DNA from: an uncultured Bacilli bacterium
Lineage (GTDB): Bacteria; Bacillota_I; Bacilli_A; RF39; UBA660
NCBI GenBank assembly: GCA_944363925.1
Contig: CALVVS010000002.1
Location: forward strand, 1 to 60,190
Direction: 5' to 3'
Length of the DNA: 60,190 nt
The translations under genes and the position numbers were made by a program. The notes beneath the pieces are model-generated. The model did not search any database and was not told the origin of the DNA. It was given only the letters and a program-made list of their open reading frames with translations. Shown piece by piece: positions 9,590-17,706 of this stretch (within the stretch, counting starts at the first letter, position 1; every line of letters starts with the position of its first letter).

Positions 9590-10024
9590 CTATTTACATT
9601 CTATATTTTCCTTCTCCATTTTATTAAAAAATTTAATCGAATTTTTCTTTAACATAAATTCATCTAAAATATTATCTTTCACCTTAGGTACATCTATATA
9701 ATACTTAAGCTCCCAAACATCCTCTTCATCCTTTGATACCGTTATTTTAATATCTTCGTTAAAAGCATACCTTTCATTAAAACTCGTGCCACTTTCCTTA
9801 ATAACTTCTAAAGTCTTTATGCCATCTTCATCTAAAGCCTCATAAGTTTTAGTAACCACCGCTTTTTTCAAAACATCTTCATTGTCATAAGTTACATCAA
9901 TACTCATCGTATCTTTTATATTCTCACTTTTTTTAGTAAAAACGCAAGTTTTTTCAAAATCTTCATTAGTAACTATGCAGCCTGTCAAACATAAAGCAAA
10001 TATTCCTATTAAAAACTTTTTCAT
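9590..10024 (-). CDS. Putative lipoprotein
   Basis: Lipobox LTGC after a hydrophobic signal (MKKFLIGIFALCLTGC). Confidence 0.6.
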   Translation of the reverse strand: MKKFLIGIFALCLTGCIVTNEDFEKTCVFTKKSENIKDTMSIDVTYDNEDVLKKAVVTKTYEALDEDGIKTLEVIKESGTSFNERYAFNEDIKITVSKDEEDVWELKYYIDVPKVKDNILDEFMLKKNSIKFFNKMEKENIECK

Positions 10025-12186
10025 TTTACACCCGGCTCCAATAAAGATAAAGATACCTTATTCTTATCAAATTTTATCTCATCAACATAACAATCTACGA
10101 TATCCCCAACATTAATAACTTCCATCGGATGTTTGATAAACTTATTAGTAAGTTTAGAAATATGGGCAAGTCCATCATTTTTTAGTCCAATATCGATAAA
10201 AGCTCCAAAAGGTGTCACATTACGCACCGTTCCTTGTAACTTCATCCCAACCTTTAAATCTTCTAAGTGCAAAATATCACTCTTTAAAATTGGTTTTGGC
10301 ATCTCATCACGCGGATCTCTATTTGGCTTCTTCAAAGACTTAATAATGTCCTCTAAAGTATAAATATCAGTTCCTAACTTGCCCGCATATTCCTTAATAT
10401 CAATATCAATACTCTGCATCTTACTAGTTCCAATATCTGAAGTAGAAAGCCCAAGCATATCAAGTAATTTCAAAGTCACATCATAACTCTCAGGGTGAAT
10501 ACTAGTAGAATCTAAAATATTCTTCTCGCCAGTAATCCTTAAAAAACCAACCGCTTGAGTATATGCCTTTAAAGGAAGTAACTTTTTAATCTCTACTCTA
10601 TCTTTAATTTTTCCATGTTCATTACGGTAATTAATTATTTTATCAATACTAGATTTCGTAAGCCCAGATACATACTTCAAAAGCGATACACTAGCCGTAT
10701 TAACATTAACTCCCACATTATTAACTGACTTTTCCACCACAAAATCTAAAGAAGAAGAAAGCTTCTTCGGTGCCACATCGTGCTGATACATCCCAACTCC
10801 AATACTCTCAGGGTCTATCTTAACAAGCTCCGAAAGTGGGTCCTGTAACCTTCTTGCAATACTTATCGCACTCCTCTGTTCTACATGTAGTGTTGGAAAT
10901 TCACTTATCGCAAGCTTGCTAGCCGAATAAACTGAAGCCCCTGCTTCACTAACCAAAATATATTCGCACTTATGCTTAGCCTCCTTTATCACATCAGCCA
11001 CAAAAGCCTCACTCTCACGGGAAGCGGTACCATTGCCAATCGCAATTATATCTATCTTATATTTATCAATCAAATCAAGTAAAACTTTTTTACTTTGCTC
11101 TTTTTCATTTTTAGGTTCATGCGGATAAATAACTTTAATATCCAGCATTTTTCCCGTATTATCAACTACCGCTAACTTACAGCCAGTCCTATAAGCCGGG
11201 TCAAAACCTAAAACCATCTTATCTTTCATCGGCGATTGCATTAATAATTTTTCCAAATTTAAGCTAAAATTACGCGTGGCCTCATCTTCCGCCTTTTCTG
11301 TAAGCTCACTTCTAATTTCTCTTTCTATTGACGGTCCAATTAACCTTTTATAACTATCGCAAATAGCCTCCTCTATTACATAATTAAAAGGAGCTTCTTT
11401 TTTAATAATTTTCTCTTTTAAATAAGCTATAATCTTATCCTTATCAATATCCAAACCAACAGAAATAACCTTCTCTTTTTCAGCGCGATTAATTGCCATT
11501 ACTCTGTAAGGCTTCGCAAAACGAACCTTTTCAGCAAAATCATAATACATCTCATAAACCTTGCTTTCATCAAGTGCATTTTTCTTTAATTTAGTCCTAA
11601 GTACACCCTCGTTAAAAGTATACCTTCTAATCCATTTTCTATAAGCCGCATTATCACTTATCCACTCGGCAATAATATAACCTGCCCCCTCTATAGCCTC
11701 CTCTTTAGTTTTCACATTTTCATTTAAAAACTTCTTTGTTAATTCCTCCAAAGAAACATTTGAAACAAATGACATAATTATCTTAGCTAAAGGCTCCAAA
11801 CCATTTTTAATCGCCTCTGTAGCCTTAGTCTTCTTCTTTTCCTTAAATGGTCTATATAAATCTTCTACCTCAACTAACTTACTAGCCTTCATTATCTGGG
11901 ACTTTAAATCATCTGTAAGTAAACCTTTCTCATCGATAAGCCTAATTACATCTTCTTTTCTCTTAAGTAAATTAACCTCATATTCATAAACTTCACTAAT
12001 TTTTCTAATCTGTTCTTCATCTAAATTACCCGTAACTTCCTTACGGTATCTTGCGATAAAAGGAATAGTATTTCCTTCTTCTAATAAATGTAAAGTTTTG
12101 GAAACCTGAATTTCCTTAACTTTTAAATCATTACTTATATTCTTAATTATATCTTCGTTCATAATTATCTCACTTTCTAAAAGCAT
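10021..12186 (-). CDS. tex: Tex-like RNA-binding transcription accessory protein
   Basis: N-terminal IPFIARYRKE, a central YqgF-like region, and a C-terminal S1 domain (GTVRNVTPFGAFIDIG). The true start may be ATG at 12162. Confidence 0.9.
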   Translation of the reverse strand: MLLESEIIMNEDIIKNISNDLKVKEIQVSKTLHLLEEGNTIPFIARYRKEVTGNLDEEQIRKISEVYEYEVNLLKRKEDVIRLIDEKGLLTDDLKSQIMKASKLVEVEDLYRPFKEKKKTKATEAIKNGLEPLAKIIMSFVSNVSLEELTKKFLNENVKTKEEAIEGAGYIIAEWISDNAAYRKWIRRYTFNEGVLRTKLKKNALDESKVYEMYYDFAEKVRFAKPYRVMAINRAEKEKVISVGLDIDKDKIIAYLKEKIIKKEAPFNYVIEEAICDSYKRLIGPSIEREIRSELTEKAEDEATRNFSLNLEKLLMQSPMKDKMVLGFDPAYRTGCKLAVVDNTGKMLDIKVIYPHEPKNEKEQSKKVLLDLIDKYKIDIIAIGNGTASRESEAFVADVIKEAKHKCEYILVSEAGASVYSASKLAISEFPTLHVEQRSAISIARRLQDPLSELVKIDPESIGVGMYQHDVAPKKLSSSLDFVVEKSVNNVGVNVNTASVSLLKYVSGLTKSSIDKIINYRNEHGKIKDRVEIKKLLPLKAYTQAVGFLRITGEKNILDSTSIHPESYDVTLKLLDMLGLSTSDIGTSKMQSIDIDIKEYAGKLGTDIYTLEDIIKSLKKPNRDPRDEMPKPILKSDILHLEDLKVGMKLQGTVRNVTPFGAFIDIGLKNDGLAHISKLTNKFIKHPMEVINVGDIVDCYVDEIKFDKNKVSLSLLEPGVK

Positions 12187-12213
12187 TATACATGGAAAAA
12201 AGAACCTTGTAAA

Positions 12214-13437
12214 TCATTTATTCAAATACTTTTTTCCAACTTTACTATCCATTAAAGATGCCTTCTTAATCACCTTAAAACCATATTTTTCCTTAAGTTC
12301 ATCAACCGTCTTCTCAAGTTCATTGTTATCCTCACGCACCTTCAAATCTTCGAATAAAGAAACCTGATGACTAGAAGTATCCGATAATTTATCTAACCTA
12401 ACTCCAATTAATCTAACCCCATCTTCTACACTCATCTCACTTAAAATCGCGCATGCCACCTTGTATATTTCTTCTGTTAAATTAGTCGCATTTACTAATT
12501 TTTTTTGATGACTAACCCTCTTAAAAAATTTATCTTTCAAAGTAACAACAATCACCGAAGCATATTTTTTTTGTTTTCTAAGCCTTATAGCCACATTTTC
12601 TGAAAGTGCTAATAAATAAGGTTCTAACTCTTCCCTAGAAGAAATATTCCGGCTAAGTGTCGTCTCATTACCAATACCTTTGGGCACGGCCTCTTCACTT
12701 ATAACTACATCAGAGCCTTTTCCATTAGCCGCTTCAATCATATCTATCGCTTGGTTCTTAAAATGCATATATAAAAACTTACTATCAGCATGCGCTAAAT
12801 CATATATTGTATTAATATTCAAATTATGAAGTTTAATCGCTGTCTTCTTACCAATTCCAAATAAATCATCCACCTTAAGTGGCCACATTTTTTTAGAAAC
12901 CTCATCTTCAAATAATGTATGTACCTTGTAAGGTTTTGAAAAATCAGAAGCCATCTTCGCACATAACTTATTATTACCAATTCCTATATTAACCGTAAAA
13001 CCTAAAGTATCAAAAATTTCCTTCTTTAACCTAAAAGCAAACTCCACTTCATCACCATATAAATGCTTAACCGGTGTATAATCTAAAAAACACTCATCAA
13101 TACTCATTTGCTCTATATCAGGTGAATACTTTCTTATCAAATCAAGCATCCTATCACTCATTTTCTTATAAAAATTGTAATTTGGTGGATAAACCTTTAA
13201 ATTAGGACATTTCTTTTTCGCACTATAAATTGTCTCAGCTGTCACAACTCCTCTTTTTTTAGCTGGCATCGATTTAGCTAAAACAATTCCATGCCGAGAA
13301 GCTTCATCACCACCTATAATCGCATAAGTTTTCCTAATATCTATATTACTTCCATTTTTTAAATATAAAATAGCCGTCCATGACAAAAAAGCATTATTAA
13401 CATCAATATGCATAATAATTTTCTTCATGAACATCAC
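12214..13437 (-). CDS. dinB: DNA polymerase IV (Y-family)
   Basis: HIDVNNAFLS, SIDECFLD and GIGNNKLCAKMASD motifs. Confidence 0.9.
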   Translation of the reverse strand: MMFMKKIIMHIDVNNAFLSWTAILYLKNGSNIDIRKTYAIIGGDEASRHGIVLAKSMPAKKRGVVTAETIYSAKKKCPNLKVYPPNYNFYKKMSDRMLDLIRKYSPDIEQMSIDECFLDYTPVKHLYGDEVEFAFRLKKEIFDTLGFTVNIGIGNNKLCAKMASDFSKPYKVHTLFEDEVSKKMWPLKVDDLFGIGKKTAIKLHNLNINTIYDLAHADSKFLYMHFKNQAIDMIEAANGKGSDVVISEEAVPKGIGNETTLSRNISSREELEPYLLALSENVAIRLRKQKKYASVIVVTLKDKFFKRVSHQKKLVNATNLTEEIYKVACAILSEMSVEDGVRLIGVRLDKLSDTSSHQVSLFEDLKVREDNNELEKTVDELKEKYGFKVIKKASLMDSKVGKKYLNK

Positions 13438-13594
13438 CCATAATTATTATATCACGAACATTAATTCGGAAAAACCCTAAAATAATAGATAAAACATATT
13501 GTAAATTATATAACTATTTGTTATACTTATATCAAGGAATATTCAATATAAGTTGGGTGTGCCAATTCTCATAAAAGAATTGGAGGTGATGCTT

Positions 13595-13672
13595 ATGACC
13601 AAAAGAGAAAAAACTCTTTACGCCATAATATCCCTTCTATTTGTCTTAATATTTATTATATTATTCAAATAG
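13595..13672 (+). CDS. 25-aa hydrophobic peptide, candidate type I toxin (copy 1)
   Basis: MTKREKTLYAIISLLFVLIFIILFK. GGAGGTGA SD partly buried in the hairpin CCAATTCT/AGAATTGG. Upstream TTGTAA-17nt-TATACT promoter. Confidence 0.55.
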   Translation: MTKREKTLYAIISLLFVLIFIILFK

Positions 13673-13784
13673 AAAAAAACACCTAACTTAAGCAACCGCT
13701 TGATTTAGGTGTACCCAAACAATTGGTACATTCAACATCGCGAATTGAACGTTCCTTTTTTATTTTATGAGATTTCTCCCATCT
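13673..13784 (-). ncRNA. Candidate antisense/convergent small RNA (antitoxin-like), copy 1
   Basis: Minus-strand promoter TTGTCA (13819-13814), 17-nt spacer, TATTAT (13796-13791). Minus-strand terminator: stem ACACCTAA/TTAGGTGT plus T7 (13712-13673), ending at the toxin stop codon. Confidence 0.5.
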
Positions 13785-13946
13785 ATATACATAATATCAT
13801 ATTTTTAAACTTTTGACAAATATATTTTATAACAAAAAGTAACAAAAACGTTGTACCTTATGTCACCATTTGTTATACTTATATTAGGGAATATTCAATA
13901 TAAGTTGGGTGCGCCAATTCTCATAAAAGAATTGGAGGTGATGCTT

Positions 13947-14024
13947 ATGACAAAAAGAGAAAAAGCTCTTTACGCCATAATATCCCTTCTATTTGTCTTA
14001 ATATTTATTATATTATTCAAATAG
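13947..14024 (+). CDS. 25-aa hydrophobic peptide, candidate type I toxin (copy 2)
   Basis: MTKREKALYAIISLLFVLIFIILFK, with the same SD-sequestering hairpin. Promoter TTGTAC-17nt-TATACT. Confidence 0.55.
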   Translation: MTKREKALYAIISLLFVLIFIILFK

Positions 14025-14137
14025 AAAAAAACACCTAACTTAAGCAACCGCTTGATTTAGGTGTCCAAACCATTTTGGTACATCCAACATGCGAGTATTG
14101 AATATTCCTTTTTTATTATATGAGATTTCTCTCATCT
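14025..14137 (-). ncRNA. Candidate convergent small RNA, copy 2
   Basis: Minus-strand TTGCCT (14172-14167), 17 nt, TATCAT (14149-14144). Terminator hairpin plus T7 at 14064-14025. Confidence 0.45.
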
Positions 14138-14174
14138 ATATACATGATATCACATTTTTAACTTTAAGGCAACC

Positions 14175-14720
14175 TTATCCTCTACTGCCACGATAATATT
14201 TTCCATAAGTAAATTTATCTCTTGCTAAAAAAGAATAAACTGATGTTTGAACAACATTATTAGCTAAAGTCTTAAGCTTATCTCCGCCTTTAACCGCATC
14301 TACCATAACCTTATATAGCCCAAGTCTCTTTGCAAAAATCATATCCAAATAAAATGAATCTCCAACCATCATAGTTATTTCAGGTTTAGAAATACCATTA
14401 AATAAAATATTATTAACTAGTACAAAATCACCGTTAAACGGTTTCTTAGCTCCAGCCACAAAATTAACATTTAACTCTCTAGCAACCGGCTCAACCCTCT
14501 TATAAGAACCACTTGAATAAAGTCCCGGCATAATACCAATACATTTAATATGATTAAATAATTCCGTCAATTTACTTGGAACCTTCTTATCATCAAATGG
14601 TAAAATTGTACAGTCCACATCAAAAACTGCAAATTTAATACCATTTTCATATAATTTCATATAATCTATATCATAAACACTTTTTTCATAAGTATCCGGA
14701 ATTAACTTTTCTAGCTCCAT
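14175..14720 (-). CDS. HAD-IIIA family phosphatase (YqeG-like)
   Basis: FDVDCT DxD-type motif and a later GDS..LD motif; size about 180 aa. Confidence 0.7.
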   Translation of the reverse strand: MELEKLIPDTYEKSVYDIDYMKLYENGIKFAVFDVDCTILPFDDKKVPSKLTELFNHIKCIGIMPGLYSSGSYKRVEPVARELNVNFVAGAKKPFNGDFVLVNNILFNGISKPEITMMVGDSFYLDMIFAKRLGLYKVMVDAVKGGDKLKTLANNVVQTSVYSFLARDKFTYGKYYRGSRG

Positions 14721-14782
14721 GTTGTTTCACCTCTCAAGTGTATAACATTATACACGCATTAGTAAAAGATGTCAAAATTACG

Positions 14783-15658
14783 CTATTTAGACATCTTTTT
14801 AATATAATCTAAAACCTCATTTTCCGTTTTACTAAAATCATCATAATTTGTCTCAAACCATTTAAGCTCCATCTTATTTCTAAACCATGTATATTGTCTT
14901 TTCGCATACCTTCTACTTTTACTTTTAATAAGTTCTATAGCTTCTTCCAAACTACACTTACCATCAAAATAATCAAATAATTCTTTAGGTCCAATCGGCG
15001 TCATCACCGCTTTACTTCTAATTCCTAAATCATATACTTCTCTTGCCTCTTCTATAAGCCCTTCAGAAACCATCTTATCCACTCTTTTATTTATCTTATA
15101 ATATAAAATATCTCTGTCAGTCGTAAGTCCAATAAATAAAGTATCATAAAGAAGTTTAAAATCTTTCTCTTTTTCACTGTAAGGTGTTCCGTTAGCCTTA
15201 TAATAATTCAAAGCATTTATAATTCTAACCCTGTTATTCAAATGAATATTAGTATTTGGGTCGACCGAAAGTAACATCTGATAAAGTTCATCATTACTAA
15301 GACCTTCATACTCTTCATTAGCCCTTGAAGGAAACTTATAATCGTATAAAACCGCGTTAATATAAAGCCCTGTTCCGCCAACTAATATCGGCACCTTACC
15401 TCTAGCTAAAATATCGTCAATTATCTTTCTAGCATCCTTCTGATAATCAAATACACTGTAATCTTCCCTTAAATCTTTCTCGTCAAACAAATAGTGTTTA
15501 ACACCCTCAGTATCCTTAATCTTATTAGTCGCAATATCTAAACCTTTATAAATTTGCGTACTATCCGCATTAATAATCTCGCCGCCAAGTTTATGTGCTA
15601 AAAACAAACTTAAATCACTCTTTCCAACCGCCGTTGGACCAGTAATTACAATTACCAT
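14783..15658 (-). CDS. miaA: tRNA dimethylallyltransferase
   Basis: GPTAVGKS P-loop, DSTQIYKGLDI, GGTGLY. Confidence 0.92.
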   Translation of the reverse strand: MVIVITGPTAVGKSDLSLFLAHKLGGEIINADSTQIYKGLDIATNKIKDTEGVKHYLFDEKDLREDYSVFDYQKDARKIIDDILARGKVPILVGGTGLYINAVLYDYKFPSRANEEYEGLSNDELYQMLLSVDPNTNIHLNNRVRIINALNYYKANGTPYSEKEKDFKLLYDTLFIGLTTDRDILYYKINKRVDKMVSEGLIEEAREVYDLGIRSKAVMTPIGPKELFDYFDGKCSLEEAIELIKSKSRRYAKRQYTWFRNKMELKWFETNYDDFSKTENEVLDYIKKMSK

Positions 15659-15667
15659 ATCATCACC

Positions 15668-16693
15668 TTACTTTATCAGCATACTATCGCCAAATGAAAA
15701 AAATCGGTATCTTTTTTCAACAGCCTCTTGATAAGCCTTCATAATATTTTCTTTACCCGCAAGCGCACTAACCAGCATCACTAACGTCGACTTCGGTAAA
15801 TGAAAATTCGTAATCAAATAATCTATCCCTTTAAACTCATAACCAGGATAAATAAAAATATCCGTCCAGCCTGAGCATCCCTTAAACTTGCCATATAAAC
15901 TCGCAATCGTCTCTAAAGTTCTCGTTGAAGTCGTTCCTACCGCAATAATTTTATGACCTTCTTCTTTAGTCTTATTAAGTAAACTCGCAACCTCGTCACT
16001 CATTATATAATATTCACTATGCATCTTATGTTTCTCCACATCCGAAACACTAACCGGTCTAAAAGTCCCAAGCCCAACATGTAAAGTAATATACGCAATA
16101 TTTACACCCTTATCTTTAATCTTACGAAGAAGCTCCTCTGTAAAATGTAAACCAGCTGTCGGTGCAGCCGCACTTCCAATATTTTTCGCATAAACCGTCT
16201 GATAACGATTTTTATCCTCTAATTTCTCGTGAATATAAGGTGGTAAAGGCATCTCACCAAGCTCATCTAAAATTTCATATAAAATACCTTTGTATTCAAG
16301 TTTAAAATGTCTAATTCCCTCATCTAAAACCTTAATACATCTAGCCTTAAGCTTGCCATCTCCAAAAGAAATAACAGTACCCTCTTTAATTCTTTTAGCC
16401 GGCCTCGTCAAACACTCAAAACAATTATTGCCATCATCTTTTAAAAGTAAAACTTCCACTAAAGCTCCAGTTTCTTCCTTAACTCCATAAAGACGAGCGG
16501 GCATAACCTTCGTATCATTTAAAACTAAAGTGTCGCCTTTTTCCATATAATCTATTATATCCGTAAAATGCCTATGACTAATATCACCCGTTTTTTTATC
16601 TAAAACAAGCAACTTAGAAGCATCACGTTTAGAAAGAGGAGTTTGTGCGATAAGCTCCTCTGGTAAATAAAAATCAAAATCATCTGTCTTCAT
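15668..16693 (-). CDS. queA: S-adenosylmethionine:tRNA ribosyltransferase-isomerase
   Basis: [16 protein letters not shown]-terminus, [16 protein letters not shown]. Confidence 0.95.
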
Positions 16694-16704
16694 TAAATCA
16701 CCTT

Positions 16705-17706
16705 CTAAAATAAAGTATCTTGCTTATTTTTCTTTAAATAACTGTAAGCCTTTTCGGTAACCATCCTTCCCCTACTTGTCCTTTTTAAAAAACCATTTTG
16801 AAGTAAATAAGGCTCATAAACATCCTCAATCGTCGAAGCCTCCTCACCAATACTAGACGCAAGCGCATCAATTCCAACCGGACCACCATTAAACTTTTCA
16901 ATAATGGAATTAAGTAAATTATAATCCGTCGCATCAAGACCAAAAGCATCCACCTTAAGTTTATCTAAAGCCATCTTGGTAATATCTAAATCTATATTGC
17001 CATCGCCCATAACTAATGCATAATCGCGAACCCTTTTAAAAAGCCTGTTCGCAATACGGGGCGTCCCTCTACTTCTTTTAGCAAGTTCCAAAGCTGCCTC
17101 TTCATTAATCGGTGATTTCAAAACTCTACTAGTTCTAAGTACAATCTGTTTAAGCTCATCTTCCGTATAAAAATTAAGCTTAGAGACAATTCCAAATCTA
17201 TCGCGAAGTGGCCCTGTTAAATCGCCAGCTCTCGTTGTCGCTCCAACTAACGTAAAAGGAGGCAAATCAATCGTAATATTTCGGCTAGAAGCATCTGAAC
17301 CCACAATAATATCTAACTTAAAATCTTCCATTGCCGAATAAAGTATCTCTTCGATAAATCTAGGTATCCTATGAATTTCATCAATAAATAAAACATCGCC
17401 GGGCTCTAAAGTCGAAAGGACCGCTGCTAAATCACCACTTTTTTCAATCGCCGGACCACTAGTCGTCTTAATATTACTGCCCATTTCATTCGCAATAATA
17501 TAAGCCATCGTTGTCTTACCAAGTCCTGGTGGGCCATATAAAAGTACATGGTCCAAAGCCTCACCGCGCATCCGCGCCGCCTTCATAAAAATACTTAAAT
17601 TCTCTTTCAGCTCTGATTGACCAATATACTCATCAATACTATCCGGTCTAATTGAAGTTTCAAAAACATCTTCGCCCATCTCTTCGCCGCTAACTAACCT
17701 TGCCAT
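16705..17706 (-). CDS. ruvB: Holliday junction branch migration helicase RuvB
   Basis: [29 protein letters not shown]. Confidence 0.96.

Follow-up and report, generated by a model that had tools for sequence, protein, structure and literature searches.

What do two repeated units between a dinB-like and a yqeG-like gene of an uncultured Bacilli bacterium (UBA660) encode: a toxin with its antisense RNA, a harmless small peptide, an RNA acting on its own account, or merely a non-coding repeat? The stretch of DNA analysed here (hereafter the window) comprises 60,190 nt (assembly GCA_944363925.1, contig CALVVS010000002.1, positions 1-60,190 of the forward strand). [quoted passage not shown] This reading and its alternatives are weighed below with the help of related units in other genomes.

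Organization of the Two Units

Self-comparison of the window resolves two tandem units of about 330 bp that are approximately 90% identical (Table 1). Each is divided into two sub-blocks, 13492-13738/13844-14090 with 91% identity and 13739-13819/14092-14172 with 84% identity, and the unit-to-unit spacing is 352-353 nt, in good agreement with the near-identical copies 352 bp apart described in the initial annotation. Because shuffled sequences give 0 expected matches for a 23-mer taken from the unit, the repeat is no chance match. The neighbors of the modules are ordinary chromosomal genes.

Table 1. Predicted features of the two units and the flanking genes (positions in the window).
Feature	Position	Strand	Basis or remarks
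DinB-like Y-family polymerase gene, 407 aa	12214-13437	minus	IMS domains; flanks the units
Unit, copy 1	13492-13819		window self-comparison
Toxin promoter, copy 1	13499..13527	plus	TTGTAA-17-TATACT, TG-extended -10
Predicted toxin mRNA, copy 1, ~230 nt	13534..13765	plus	start 7 nt past -10, through U-run 13756-13766
Leader, copy 1	13534..13559	plus	box 1 AAGGAATATTCAATA; helix P1 with 13743-13757
Leader box 2, copy 1, GTTGGGTG	13552-13559	plus	complements CACCTAAC (13680-13687) and ACATTCAAC (13728-13736)
Anti-SD/SD hairpin, copy 1, CCAATTCT/AGAATTGG	13562-13583	plus	fold
SD GGAGG, copy 1	13582-13586	plus	overlapped by the anti-SD hairpin (hairpin region 13562..13586)
ORF, copy 1, 25 aa, MTKREKTLYAIISLLFVLIFIILFK	13595-13672 (with stop)	plus	ATG 8 nt past SD
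Antisense terminator, copy 1	13673-13711	minus	CACCTAA...TTAGGTG, then U7; folding, covariation
Hairpin H2, copy 1	13728..13752	minus	fold, covariation
5' hairpin H3, copy 1	13767..13782	minus	AUGGGA-GAAA-UCUCAU
Predicted antisense RNA, copy 1, ~111 nt	13784 to 13673	minus	MFE -30.8 kcal/mol, z = -3.5
Antisense promoter, copy 1	13819..13791	minus	TTGTCA-17-TATTAT, TG-extended; simple scan
Unit, copy 2	13844-14172		window self-comparison
Toxin promoter, copy 2	13851..13879	plus	TTGTAC-17-TATACT, TG-extended -10
Predicted toxin mRNA, copy 2	13886..14118	plus	fold
Leader, copy 2	13886-13911	plus	P1 paired perfectly
Anti-SD/SD hairpin, copy 2, CCAATTCT/AGAATTGG	13914-13935	plus	fold
ORF, copy 2, 25 aa, MTKREKALYAIISLLFVLIFIILFK	13947-14024 (with stop)	plus	translation
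Antisense terminator, copy 2	14025-14063	minus	CACCTAA...TTAGGTG, then U7; folding, covariation
Hairpin H2, copy 2	about 14080-14105	minus	fold, covariation
5' hairpin H3, copy 2	14120-14135	minus	
Predicted antisense RNA, copy 2, ~113 nt	14137 to 14025	minus	MFE -31.9 kcal/mol, z = -4.5
Antisense promoter, copy 2	14172..14144	minus	TTGCCT-17-TATCAT, TG-extended; simple scan
HAD/YqeG-like phosphatase gene, 181 aa	14175-14720	minus	other flank of the units

Distribution in Gut Bacilli

One genome per species was searched with the 24-mer GAGATTTCTCNCATCTATATACAT, which comes from the promoter-proximal region of the antisense gene and is blind to the ORF. The search returned 65 loci with approximately 80 units in about 25 genomes of uncultured gut Bacilli, mostly from the chicken gut, which carry the MAG labels Firmicutes bacterium CAG:822, Candidatus Coprosoma, Candidatus Faecisoma, and "uncultured Bacilli". 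Each genome carries 3-10 units, complete chromosomes of 1.3-1.5 Mb included, and nearly all units possess a hydrophobic ORF of 20-30 aa located 170-190 nt upstream. Searching with a profile of the toxin promoter plus leader gave 63 distinct canonical units, and matches to the leader pattern include human gut metagenomes. A comparison with related genomes, by homology and covariance, had been proposed in the initial annotation; the layout is kept throughout these units and the RNAs covary, as detailed below. The same 24-mer found no match in viral contigs, so that carriage by a prophage is without support.

With regard to public sequencing runs, all of those carrying the sequence are unstranded contigs (assemblies). 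A depth peak at 14116-14179, within the conserved core, also appears in a DNA run (82 versus 4.2, about 20 times the flanks) and therefore reflects the collapse of repeat copies, not expression. By this depth ratio, there might be about 20 modules per genome. In addition, a 234-nt contig in run X35, with a depth of 2, matches the predicted copy-2 mRNA (13891-14124), which is probably a coincidence.

The Peptide and Its Coding Frame

Both copies in the window contain an intact 25-codon ORF for MTKREK(T/A)LYAIISLLFVLIFIILFK, a hydrophobic peptide with a charged N-terminus, as had been noticed at the outset. A peptide nearly identical to that of copy 2 is the commonest form of its family (family A) in other genomes. 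Across the units, the peptides fall into at least four unrelated types, all hydrophobic: type A, that of the window (MTKREKALYAIISLLFILIFIILFK), type B (MNKKDFLILSLVIIIFLLLLILLIVLI), type C (MTKRTFVLRVLRYVTIILSLLTCLVIAIKK), and type D (MQQLIAFALIVFYTILILKNKD). The peptides are 20-30 aa long, with a mean Kyte-Doolittle hydropathy of 1.8, charged termini, and one predicted transmembrane helix, and they thus have the properties of type I toxins, i.e., small (<60 aa) hydrophobic peptides with a single predicted transmembrane helix. The initial annotation recognized no named toxin family in the peptide; searches of Pfam and NCBIfam with seven representative peptides, at E values up to 10, likewise gave noise only, a result in which the shortness of the peptides could hide distant homology. 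A 57-aa read-through ORF occurs in one protein cluster only among 5.8 billion. A 31-aa ORF on the minus strand of copy 2 (14040-14135) was also considered and was discarded, as the same frame in copy 1 stops after 5 codons.

Selection on the ORF bears on whether the unit is instead a MITE- or REP-like intergenic repeat without coding function, its small ORF occurring by accident. The units are indeed multi-copy and intergenic, they contain internal inverted repeats, and their copy number varies at a single chromosomal site. However, in spite of the AT-rich sequence, all but two of the 63 canonical units possess an intact ATG ORF (GTG replaces the ATG in one of these two), and the SD-ATG spacing is correct. 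Pooled pN/pS for family A is 0.47 in the ORF frame versus 0.80 and 1.02 out of frame; that for family B is 0.31 in frame, with an out-of-frame range of 0.8-1.9 for both families, and second codon positions are the least variable. This frame-specific constraint indicates that the peptide is a selected product. Four peptide types that share hydrophobicity, two promoters conserved at their consensus positions only (see below), and unit ends at which terminal inverted repeats and target-site duplications were sought and not found also speak against such a repeat, which we consider very improbable.

The Plus-Strand Promoter and a Predicted Closed mRNA

The plus-strand promoter proposed initially (TTGTAA or TTGTAC, 17 nt, TATACT) is present in both copies and kept in relatives. 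A simple promoter scan passed copy 1 and missed copy 2, whose -35 element is too weak. Of the 63 canonical units that could be scored, 61 retain the promoter, with a -10 element of TATACT in 41 and TATAAT in 7, and in most of them a -35 element of the form TTGnnn lies 17 nt upstream of the -10.

From this promoter, an mRNA of about 230 nt with putative ends is predicted. The predicted mRNAs fold far more stably than shuffled sequences, with an MFE of -72.8 kcal/mol versus -35.0 kcal/mol (z = -10.0) for copy 1 and -79.7 kcal/mol versus about -39 kcal/mol (z = -10.9) for copy 2. Their most prominent element is a long-range helix, designated P1, between the first ~15 nt of the mRNA (AAGGAAYRTTCAATA) and the ~15 nt immediately ahead of the 3' U-run. 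P1 was predicted independently by RNAalifold, with 7 of 12 pairs changed on both sides and 96.4% of the alignment cells paired, and it is part of the MFE fold of all 63 canonical units. Its first nucleotide lies 6-7 nt past the plus-strand -10 in 51 of 61 units, which is the expected transcription start. The second leader element, box 2 (consensus GTTGGGYG), covaries with both of its candidate partners, namely the segment following the stop codon and the 5' arm of H2. The local plus-strand hairpin before the U-run is weak, so that both the place and the mode of mRNA termination are uncertain.

Within the closed structure, a hairpin sequesters part of the GGAGG SD, as had been suggested: at least four of the five SD nucleotides are paired in the MFE folds of 52 of the 63 units. 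For the other peptide types, the anti-SD hairpin has a different sequence and an unchanged role. On the other hand, an inverted repeat assigned to the leader in the initial annotation (ACTTATAT...ATATAAGT) had to be abandoned. Part of it falls inside the -10 box, ahead of the predicted start, and relatives do not conserve it; the leader pairs with the 3' end of the mRNA instead.

The Predicted Antisense RNA Gene and the Strand of Each Structure

A convergent minus-strand promoter, claimed initially on the basis of TTGTCA-17-TATTAT in copy 1, is kept in 63 of 63 units in the form of TTGnnn, a 17-nt spacer, TG at -15/-14, and TAnnAT (eight variants). The non-consensus positions vary among units, and the plus-strand promoter is likewise kept only at its consensus positions. 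The RNA that would start here, with ends inferred from promoter and terminator, overlaps about 90 nt of the 3' UTR of the mRNA with perfect complementarity, including the 3' strand of P1. At the level of sequence, the units thus contain the second component of a type I system, an antisense gene complementary to the toxin mRNA. The U-tail of the terminator is the complement of the A-run directly after the stop codon (13673-13679 and 14025-14031). The initial proposal of a ~110-nt minus-strand RNA ending at a hairpin and T7 terminator that abuts the stop codon is upheld by folding and covariation (6 of 6 base pairs of the hairpin with compensatory changes; 98.6% of cells paired on the minus strand), but not by a simple terminator scan, which called no terminator.

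In an alignment of 47 diverse units, RNAalifold independently found H3, H2, and the terminator, with compensatory changes in 15 of 20 pairs. The 3' arm of H2, read on the plus strand, is the 3' strand of P1 in copy 1. On the minus strand, the loop of H3 is GAAA or GCAA, i.e., a GNRA loop, and a double change in its stem (ATGAGA/TCTCAT to ATGAAG/CTTCAT) occurs in four units (L061, L067, L074, and L078) that were recovered by the leader pattern, which is independent of H3. Overall, 98.5% of the cells in the antisense helices are paired, compared with 31-49% when the partners are slid; none of 500 shuffles reaches 98.5%, although shuffle controls overstate significance for mutually related units such as these, and the slid-partner and strand-asymmetry tests are more robust.

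The strand-asymmetry test makes use of the fact that a G·U pair works on the plus strand only, whereas A·C in the plus-strand reading is a wobble on the minus strand only. P1 contains 89 G·U and 16 A·C, and P2 contains 56 and 13, respectively. The reverse is seen for H2 (2 G·U, 51 A·C) and H3 (0 G·U, 10 A·C), while in the terminator hairpin, 32 cases favor the minus strand and 14 the plus strand. By these counts, P1 and P2, the long-range helices, are attributed to the plus-strand RNA, whereas H2, H3, and the terminator, which are local hairpins, are attributed to the RNA of the minus strand. The asymmetry is the strongest evidence given by sequence that functional RNAs are probably made from both strands, and it illustrates that the strand of each structure can be assigned from wobble asymmetry alone.

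Within the unit, conservation across all peptide types is highest in the 5'-terminal ~45 nt of the antisense RNA, which comprise H3, an A-rich tract, and GGAAYRTTCAATA. Duplex energies between this 5' domain and the first 110 nt of the mRNA were no better than those of shuffled sequences for most of 18 diverse units (most z values from -0.2 to -1.9, two at -2.3 and -3.3), and the sites vary. A trans pairing of the 5' domain with the toxin translation start, as in Fst or SprA1, is therefore not supported, there being no conserved complementarity.

These observations raise the question of whether the minus-strand RNA is itself the primary element, be it as a small RNA acting in trans or as one that binds protein and has targets of its own, with the peptide genes as passengers. 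Such a role would account for the conservation of the 5' domain, which extends to units obtained with the leader probe independent of that region, for the covariation and GNRA loop of H3, and for the persistence of solo antisense copies without a toxin (see below). Yet the 5' domain shows no conserved complementarity to the 5' region of the toxin mRNA, no other target is known for the minus-strand RNA, nor is there an Rfam family for it, most of its length overlaps a toxin 3' UTR that covaries with the toxin leader, and the solo copies look like deletion remnants. We therefore judge a primary, independent RNA to be improbable, and the type I arrangement, in which the RNA serves as the antitoxin of the convergent peptide gene, is retained.

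Turnover of Peptide Types on a Common Scaffold

Five other species share the dinB-yqeG site in synteny; their flanks are approximately 80% identical to those of the window, and the content of the site differs among them. The window carries two units of type A (A/A); the order is B/A in L062 and L008 and A/B in L039, a single A unit is present in L015, and L029 retains a remnant in which the toxin is frameshifted and its promoter deleted, with the antisense part intact. A disrupted ORF between conserved flanks in close relatives, which the initial annotation had named as evidence against the module, is thus found at one of the six syntenic sites, a finding that fits the turnover of toxin-antitoxin loci rather than a spurious ORF. 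Across the family, a broken toxin beside an intact antisense part (a "solo antisense" remnant) is seen in about a dozen of the ~80 units. In L021, the type C toxin is kept with a different terminator and the antisense part is absent, and in L030_4635, the -10 of the toxin promoter is mutated to CAAACT. Turnover of content at one site, together with decayed units, is typical of toxin-antitoxin loci. The family thereby shows the swapping of toxin cassettes on a conserved antisense scaffold, and its modules may serve as markers of how strains vary at fixed sites of the chromosome.

The same observations bear on whether the peptide is toxic at all. It might be a non-toxic small membrane protein with a physiological role, whose level is tuned by the antisense RNA. 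Toxicity is a prediction here, some published candidates sharing these hallmarks were not toxic (YhzE-2, a type I peptide candidate, when overproduced; PMC2887945), and the purifying selection described above fits any functional peptide. By contrast, the swapping of at least four unrelated peptide types on one RNA scaffold, the tandem duplication and high copy number in chromosomes of only 1.3-1.5 Mb, the frequent decay that breaks the peptide gene and spares the antisense gene, and the several simultaneous blocks predicted to act on translation are typical of type I toxins and would be odd for a housekeeping small protein. A benign peptide is accordingly regarded as unlikely, though it is the most serious of the competing explanations, and a toxin held in check by its antisense RNA is preferred.

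The segment of the antisense RNA that is complementary to the 3' strand of P1 is common to the RNAs of all units, and identical stretches of 18-22 nt are shared between many paralogues (42 nt between the two copies in the window). Because of this common segment, the antitoxins of one locus, solo copies included, could cross-neutralize toxins of other loci, so that one antisense scaffold with the interchangeable, unrelated cassettes A-D would form a modular network. We advance this only tentatively and put its odds well short of even; if true, it would represent an unusually dense, cross-buffered type I network, with 3-10 modules in each small genome.

Proposed Mode of Action

Taken together, it seems probable (about three chances in four) that each unit is a 3'-overlapping type I toxin-antitoxin-like module and that the units form a new multi-copy family of small-genome gut Bacilli. 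Judged by sequence, this would be a well-supported type I family in uncultured, small-genome Bacilli of the chicken and human gut, a lineage without an annotated one; its ORFs are below the limits of gene callers.

A mode of action can be proposed in which the transcript ends, the toxicity, the involvement of an RNase, and the biological role are inferred, largely by analogy. The plus-strand promoter, which looks constitutive, would yield the mRNA for a peptide with a charged N-terminus and one transmembrane helix. This mRNA would be closed by P1, with box 2 pairing deeper in the 3' UTR and the SD held in the anti-SD hairpin; a closed mRNA with a buried SD should be translated poorly by its very nature and have both ends protected. 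The minus-strand promoter would give rise to an RNA of about 111 nt with a GNRA-capped 5' hairpin, an A-rich tract, a second hairpin, and a terminator at the toxin stop codon. If bsrG/SR4 is a guide, binding of the antisense RNA may create a long duplex cleavable by RNase III, and may strip the leader from P1 so that the 5' end is opened to decay while the SD stays locked. Duplex formation and decay would keep the peptide unmade; once made, it would presumably insert into the membrane and harm the cell.

Comparison with Known Type I Systems

The initial annotation likened the units to BsrG/SR4 and TxpA/RatA, and the comparison proves apt. In bsrG/SR4 of the Bacillus subtilis SPβ prophage, and also in bsrE/SR5 and bsrH/as-bsrH, the two genes are convergent and the antisense RNA overlaps the 3' end of the mRNA, as in the units. 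Structure probing of bsrG mRNA has shown that nt 1-35 pair with nt 232-262 and that the SD lies in a stem (PMC3834814). The units have the same P1 topology, in which a helix between the 5' leader and the 3' region encloses the SD-sequestering hairpin and the ORF. Binding of SR4, which overlaps bsrG in the 3' region, renders nt 1-33 single-stranded and lengthens the SD helix (PMC3834814). Decay of bsrG/SR4 involves RNase III (PMC3834814); RNase III-dependent decay is also described for txpA/RatA-type systems (PMC3531473). Different toxins on conserved antisense loci, as observed among the units, were reported for bsrG/SR4-type systems as well (PMC3834814, PMC6562991).

Several differences from bsrG/SR4 should be mentioned. 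No Rfam model reached its gathering score anywhere in the window. BsrG (RF01412) is the only model that aligns, with the leader paired to the post-stop segment and the SD hairpin placed correctly, at scores of 18.2 bits for copy 1 and 14.1 bits for copy 2 against a gathering threshold of 55. The window peptide has 25 aa versus 38 aa for BsrG, with undetectable sequence similarity, and no homology of the peptides to BsrG, BsrE, or BsrH was found by Pfam and NCBIfam. The predicted antisense RNA is ~111 nt long versus 180 nt for SR4, and it stops just past the stop codon, whereas in BsrG/SR4, TxpA/RatA, and YonT/SR6 the antisense RNA enters the 3' part of the toxin ORF. Unlike in bsrG, the 3' strand of P1 runs directly into the U-run without a separate terminator stem-loop, and the units lie outside a prophage context.

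Among other Gram-positive systems, txpA/RatA and yonT/SR6 of B. subtilis and EF3263 of E. faecalis resemble the units in having a convergent antisense RNA, about 100-220 nt in length, that overlaps the toxin mRNA at the 3' end (an RNA of ~110 nt was detected for EF3263), but their toxins have 58-59 aa, compared with 20-30 aa in the units, which match nothing in Rfam or Pfam, and their antisense RNAs reach into the ORF. In fst/RNA II (par of pAD1) and sprA1/SprA1as, the antisense RNA is also off the ORF and the small peptide has a single transmembrane helix; however, these RNAs interact via 5' regions outside the overlap, for which the units have no conserved complementarity. Type D (MQQLIAFALIVFYTILILKNKD) is the only Fst-like peptide, with a hydrophobic N-terminus and a charged C-terminus. 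In hok/Sok and aapA1/IsoA1, too, the full-length toxin mRNA is compact and closed to translation owing to long-distance pairing of its 5' and 3' ends. These systems are Gram-negative, their antisense RNAs target the 5' region or the start of translation, and their activation needs 3' processing, whereas nothing in the units suggests an mRNA processing step.

By analogy, the units are thus best placed as a new family within a known class, apparently working like bsrG/SR4 with no demonstrable membership of it; they are considered new because the Rfam BsrG scores are below threshold, the peptides belong to no family, the antisense RNA lies off the ORF, and its 5' domain shows no conserved complementarity to the mRNA. 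The ~80 natural variants provide a ready-made mutational series for what would be a second example, outside Bacillus, of the closed mRNA fold of the bsrG type.

Units with an altered or missing toxin or antisense part

In five units related to those of the window (solo antisense units in the table), the promoter of the antisense RNA, its hairpins H3 and H2, and its terminator are all intact, and the toxin promoter, leader, and ORF carry a deletion or frameshift. At L029, the toxin ORF reads ATG TTT ATA CCT AAA AAA ACT TCT TTT TGA. Such units could either be remnants left by decay or serve as orphan antitoxins. At L021, a type-C toxin has a changed C-terminus; the plus-strand terminator after it is a different one (AGCTTACCTCGCGGTAAGCTTTTT), and the antisense module is absent, making this the sole toxin lacking an antisense partner among the units found. 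Apart from its -10 box, unit L030_4635- is intact, including the ORF, and may, judging from this sequence, be a promoter-down copy.

Genomic neighbourhood and copy number

The ORFs flanking the modules, from the tex-like through the ruvB-like gene, all lie on the minus strand; the Pfam check among them covered the dinB-like and yqeG-like ORFs only. Since the module flanks share only ~80% identity with the nearest representative genomes, the source of the window is, by sequence, a species outside the representative genomes compared.

In the DNA run X9, contig depth is ~82 at the conserved 24-mer core vs. ~4.2 at the flanking genes, which suggests roughly 20 module copies per genome in this sample, exceeding the 3-10 counted in assembled genomes. 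A 234-nt contig in X35, a run of unspecified kind with the same organism label as the DNA runs, has both ends within 5 nt of the predicted ends of the copy-2 mRNA. This match is probably a coincidence, because the depth of the contig is only 2 and the neighbouring gene has another contig of similar length.

Table. Locations of the features discussed
Feature	Location	Remark
Solo antisense unit	L029:5639-5901	OZ007025.1, syntenic dinB-yqeG site
Further solo antisense units	L001:6000-6300, L003:6100-6400, L031:2600-2860, L037:2850-3120	
Type-C toxin unit	L021:5500-5911	minus strand; MRKKDLLISFLILIIILLIVSLMILC...
Unit L030_4635-	L030:4595-4640	toxin -10 CAAACT in place of TATACT
Gene order	window 10021-17706	tex-like (721 aa), dinB-like, two modules, yqeG-like, miaA-like, queA-like, ruvB-like
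Conserved core	window 14110-14150	
X35 contig	window 13891-14124	
Box 2 vs. two candidate partners	window 13552-13559 vs. 13680-13687 and 13728-13736	likewise in copy 2
SD with in-ORF partner	window 13582-13586 with ~13641-13645	A3 columns 60-64 with 123-127
Identical terminator region	window 13673-13714 and 14025-14066	42 nt

Predicted pairing within and between transcripts

Three segments covary jointly across the family, namely leader box 2 (GTTGGGYG) and the 5' arms of the terminator hairpin and H2, so the toxin mRNA may alternate between different folds. In alignment A3, RNAalifold also predicts that a conserved CCUUC inside the ORF (codons around ..SLLF..) pairs with the SD GGAGG, and this CCUUC would be a second anti-SD, located within the coding region; this predicted pairing contains many G·U pairs, and a compensatory change occurs in only one of its five pairs. 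Because the antisense terminator region is identical between the window copies, each antisense RNA is perfectly complementary there to the mRNA of the other copy, and cross-repression between the two would thus be expected.
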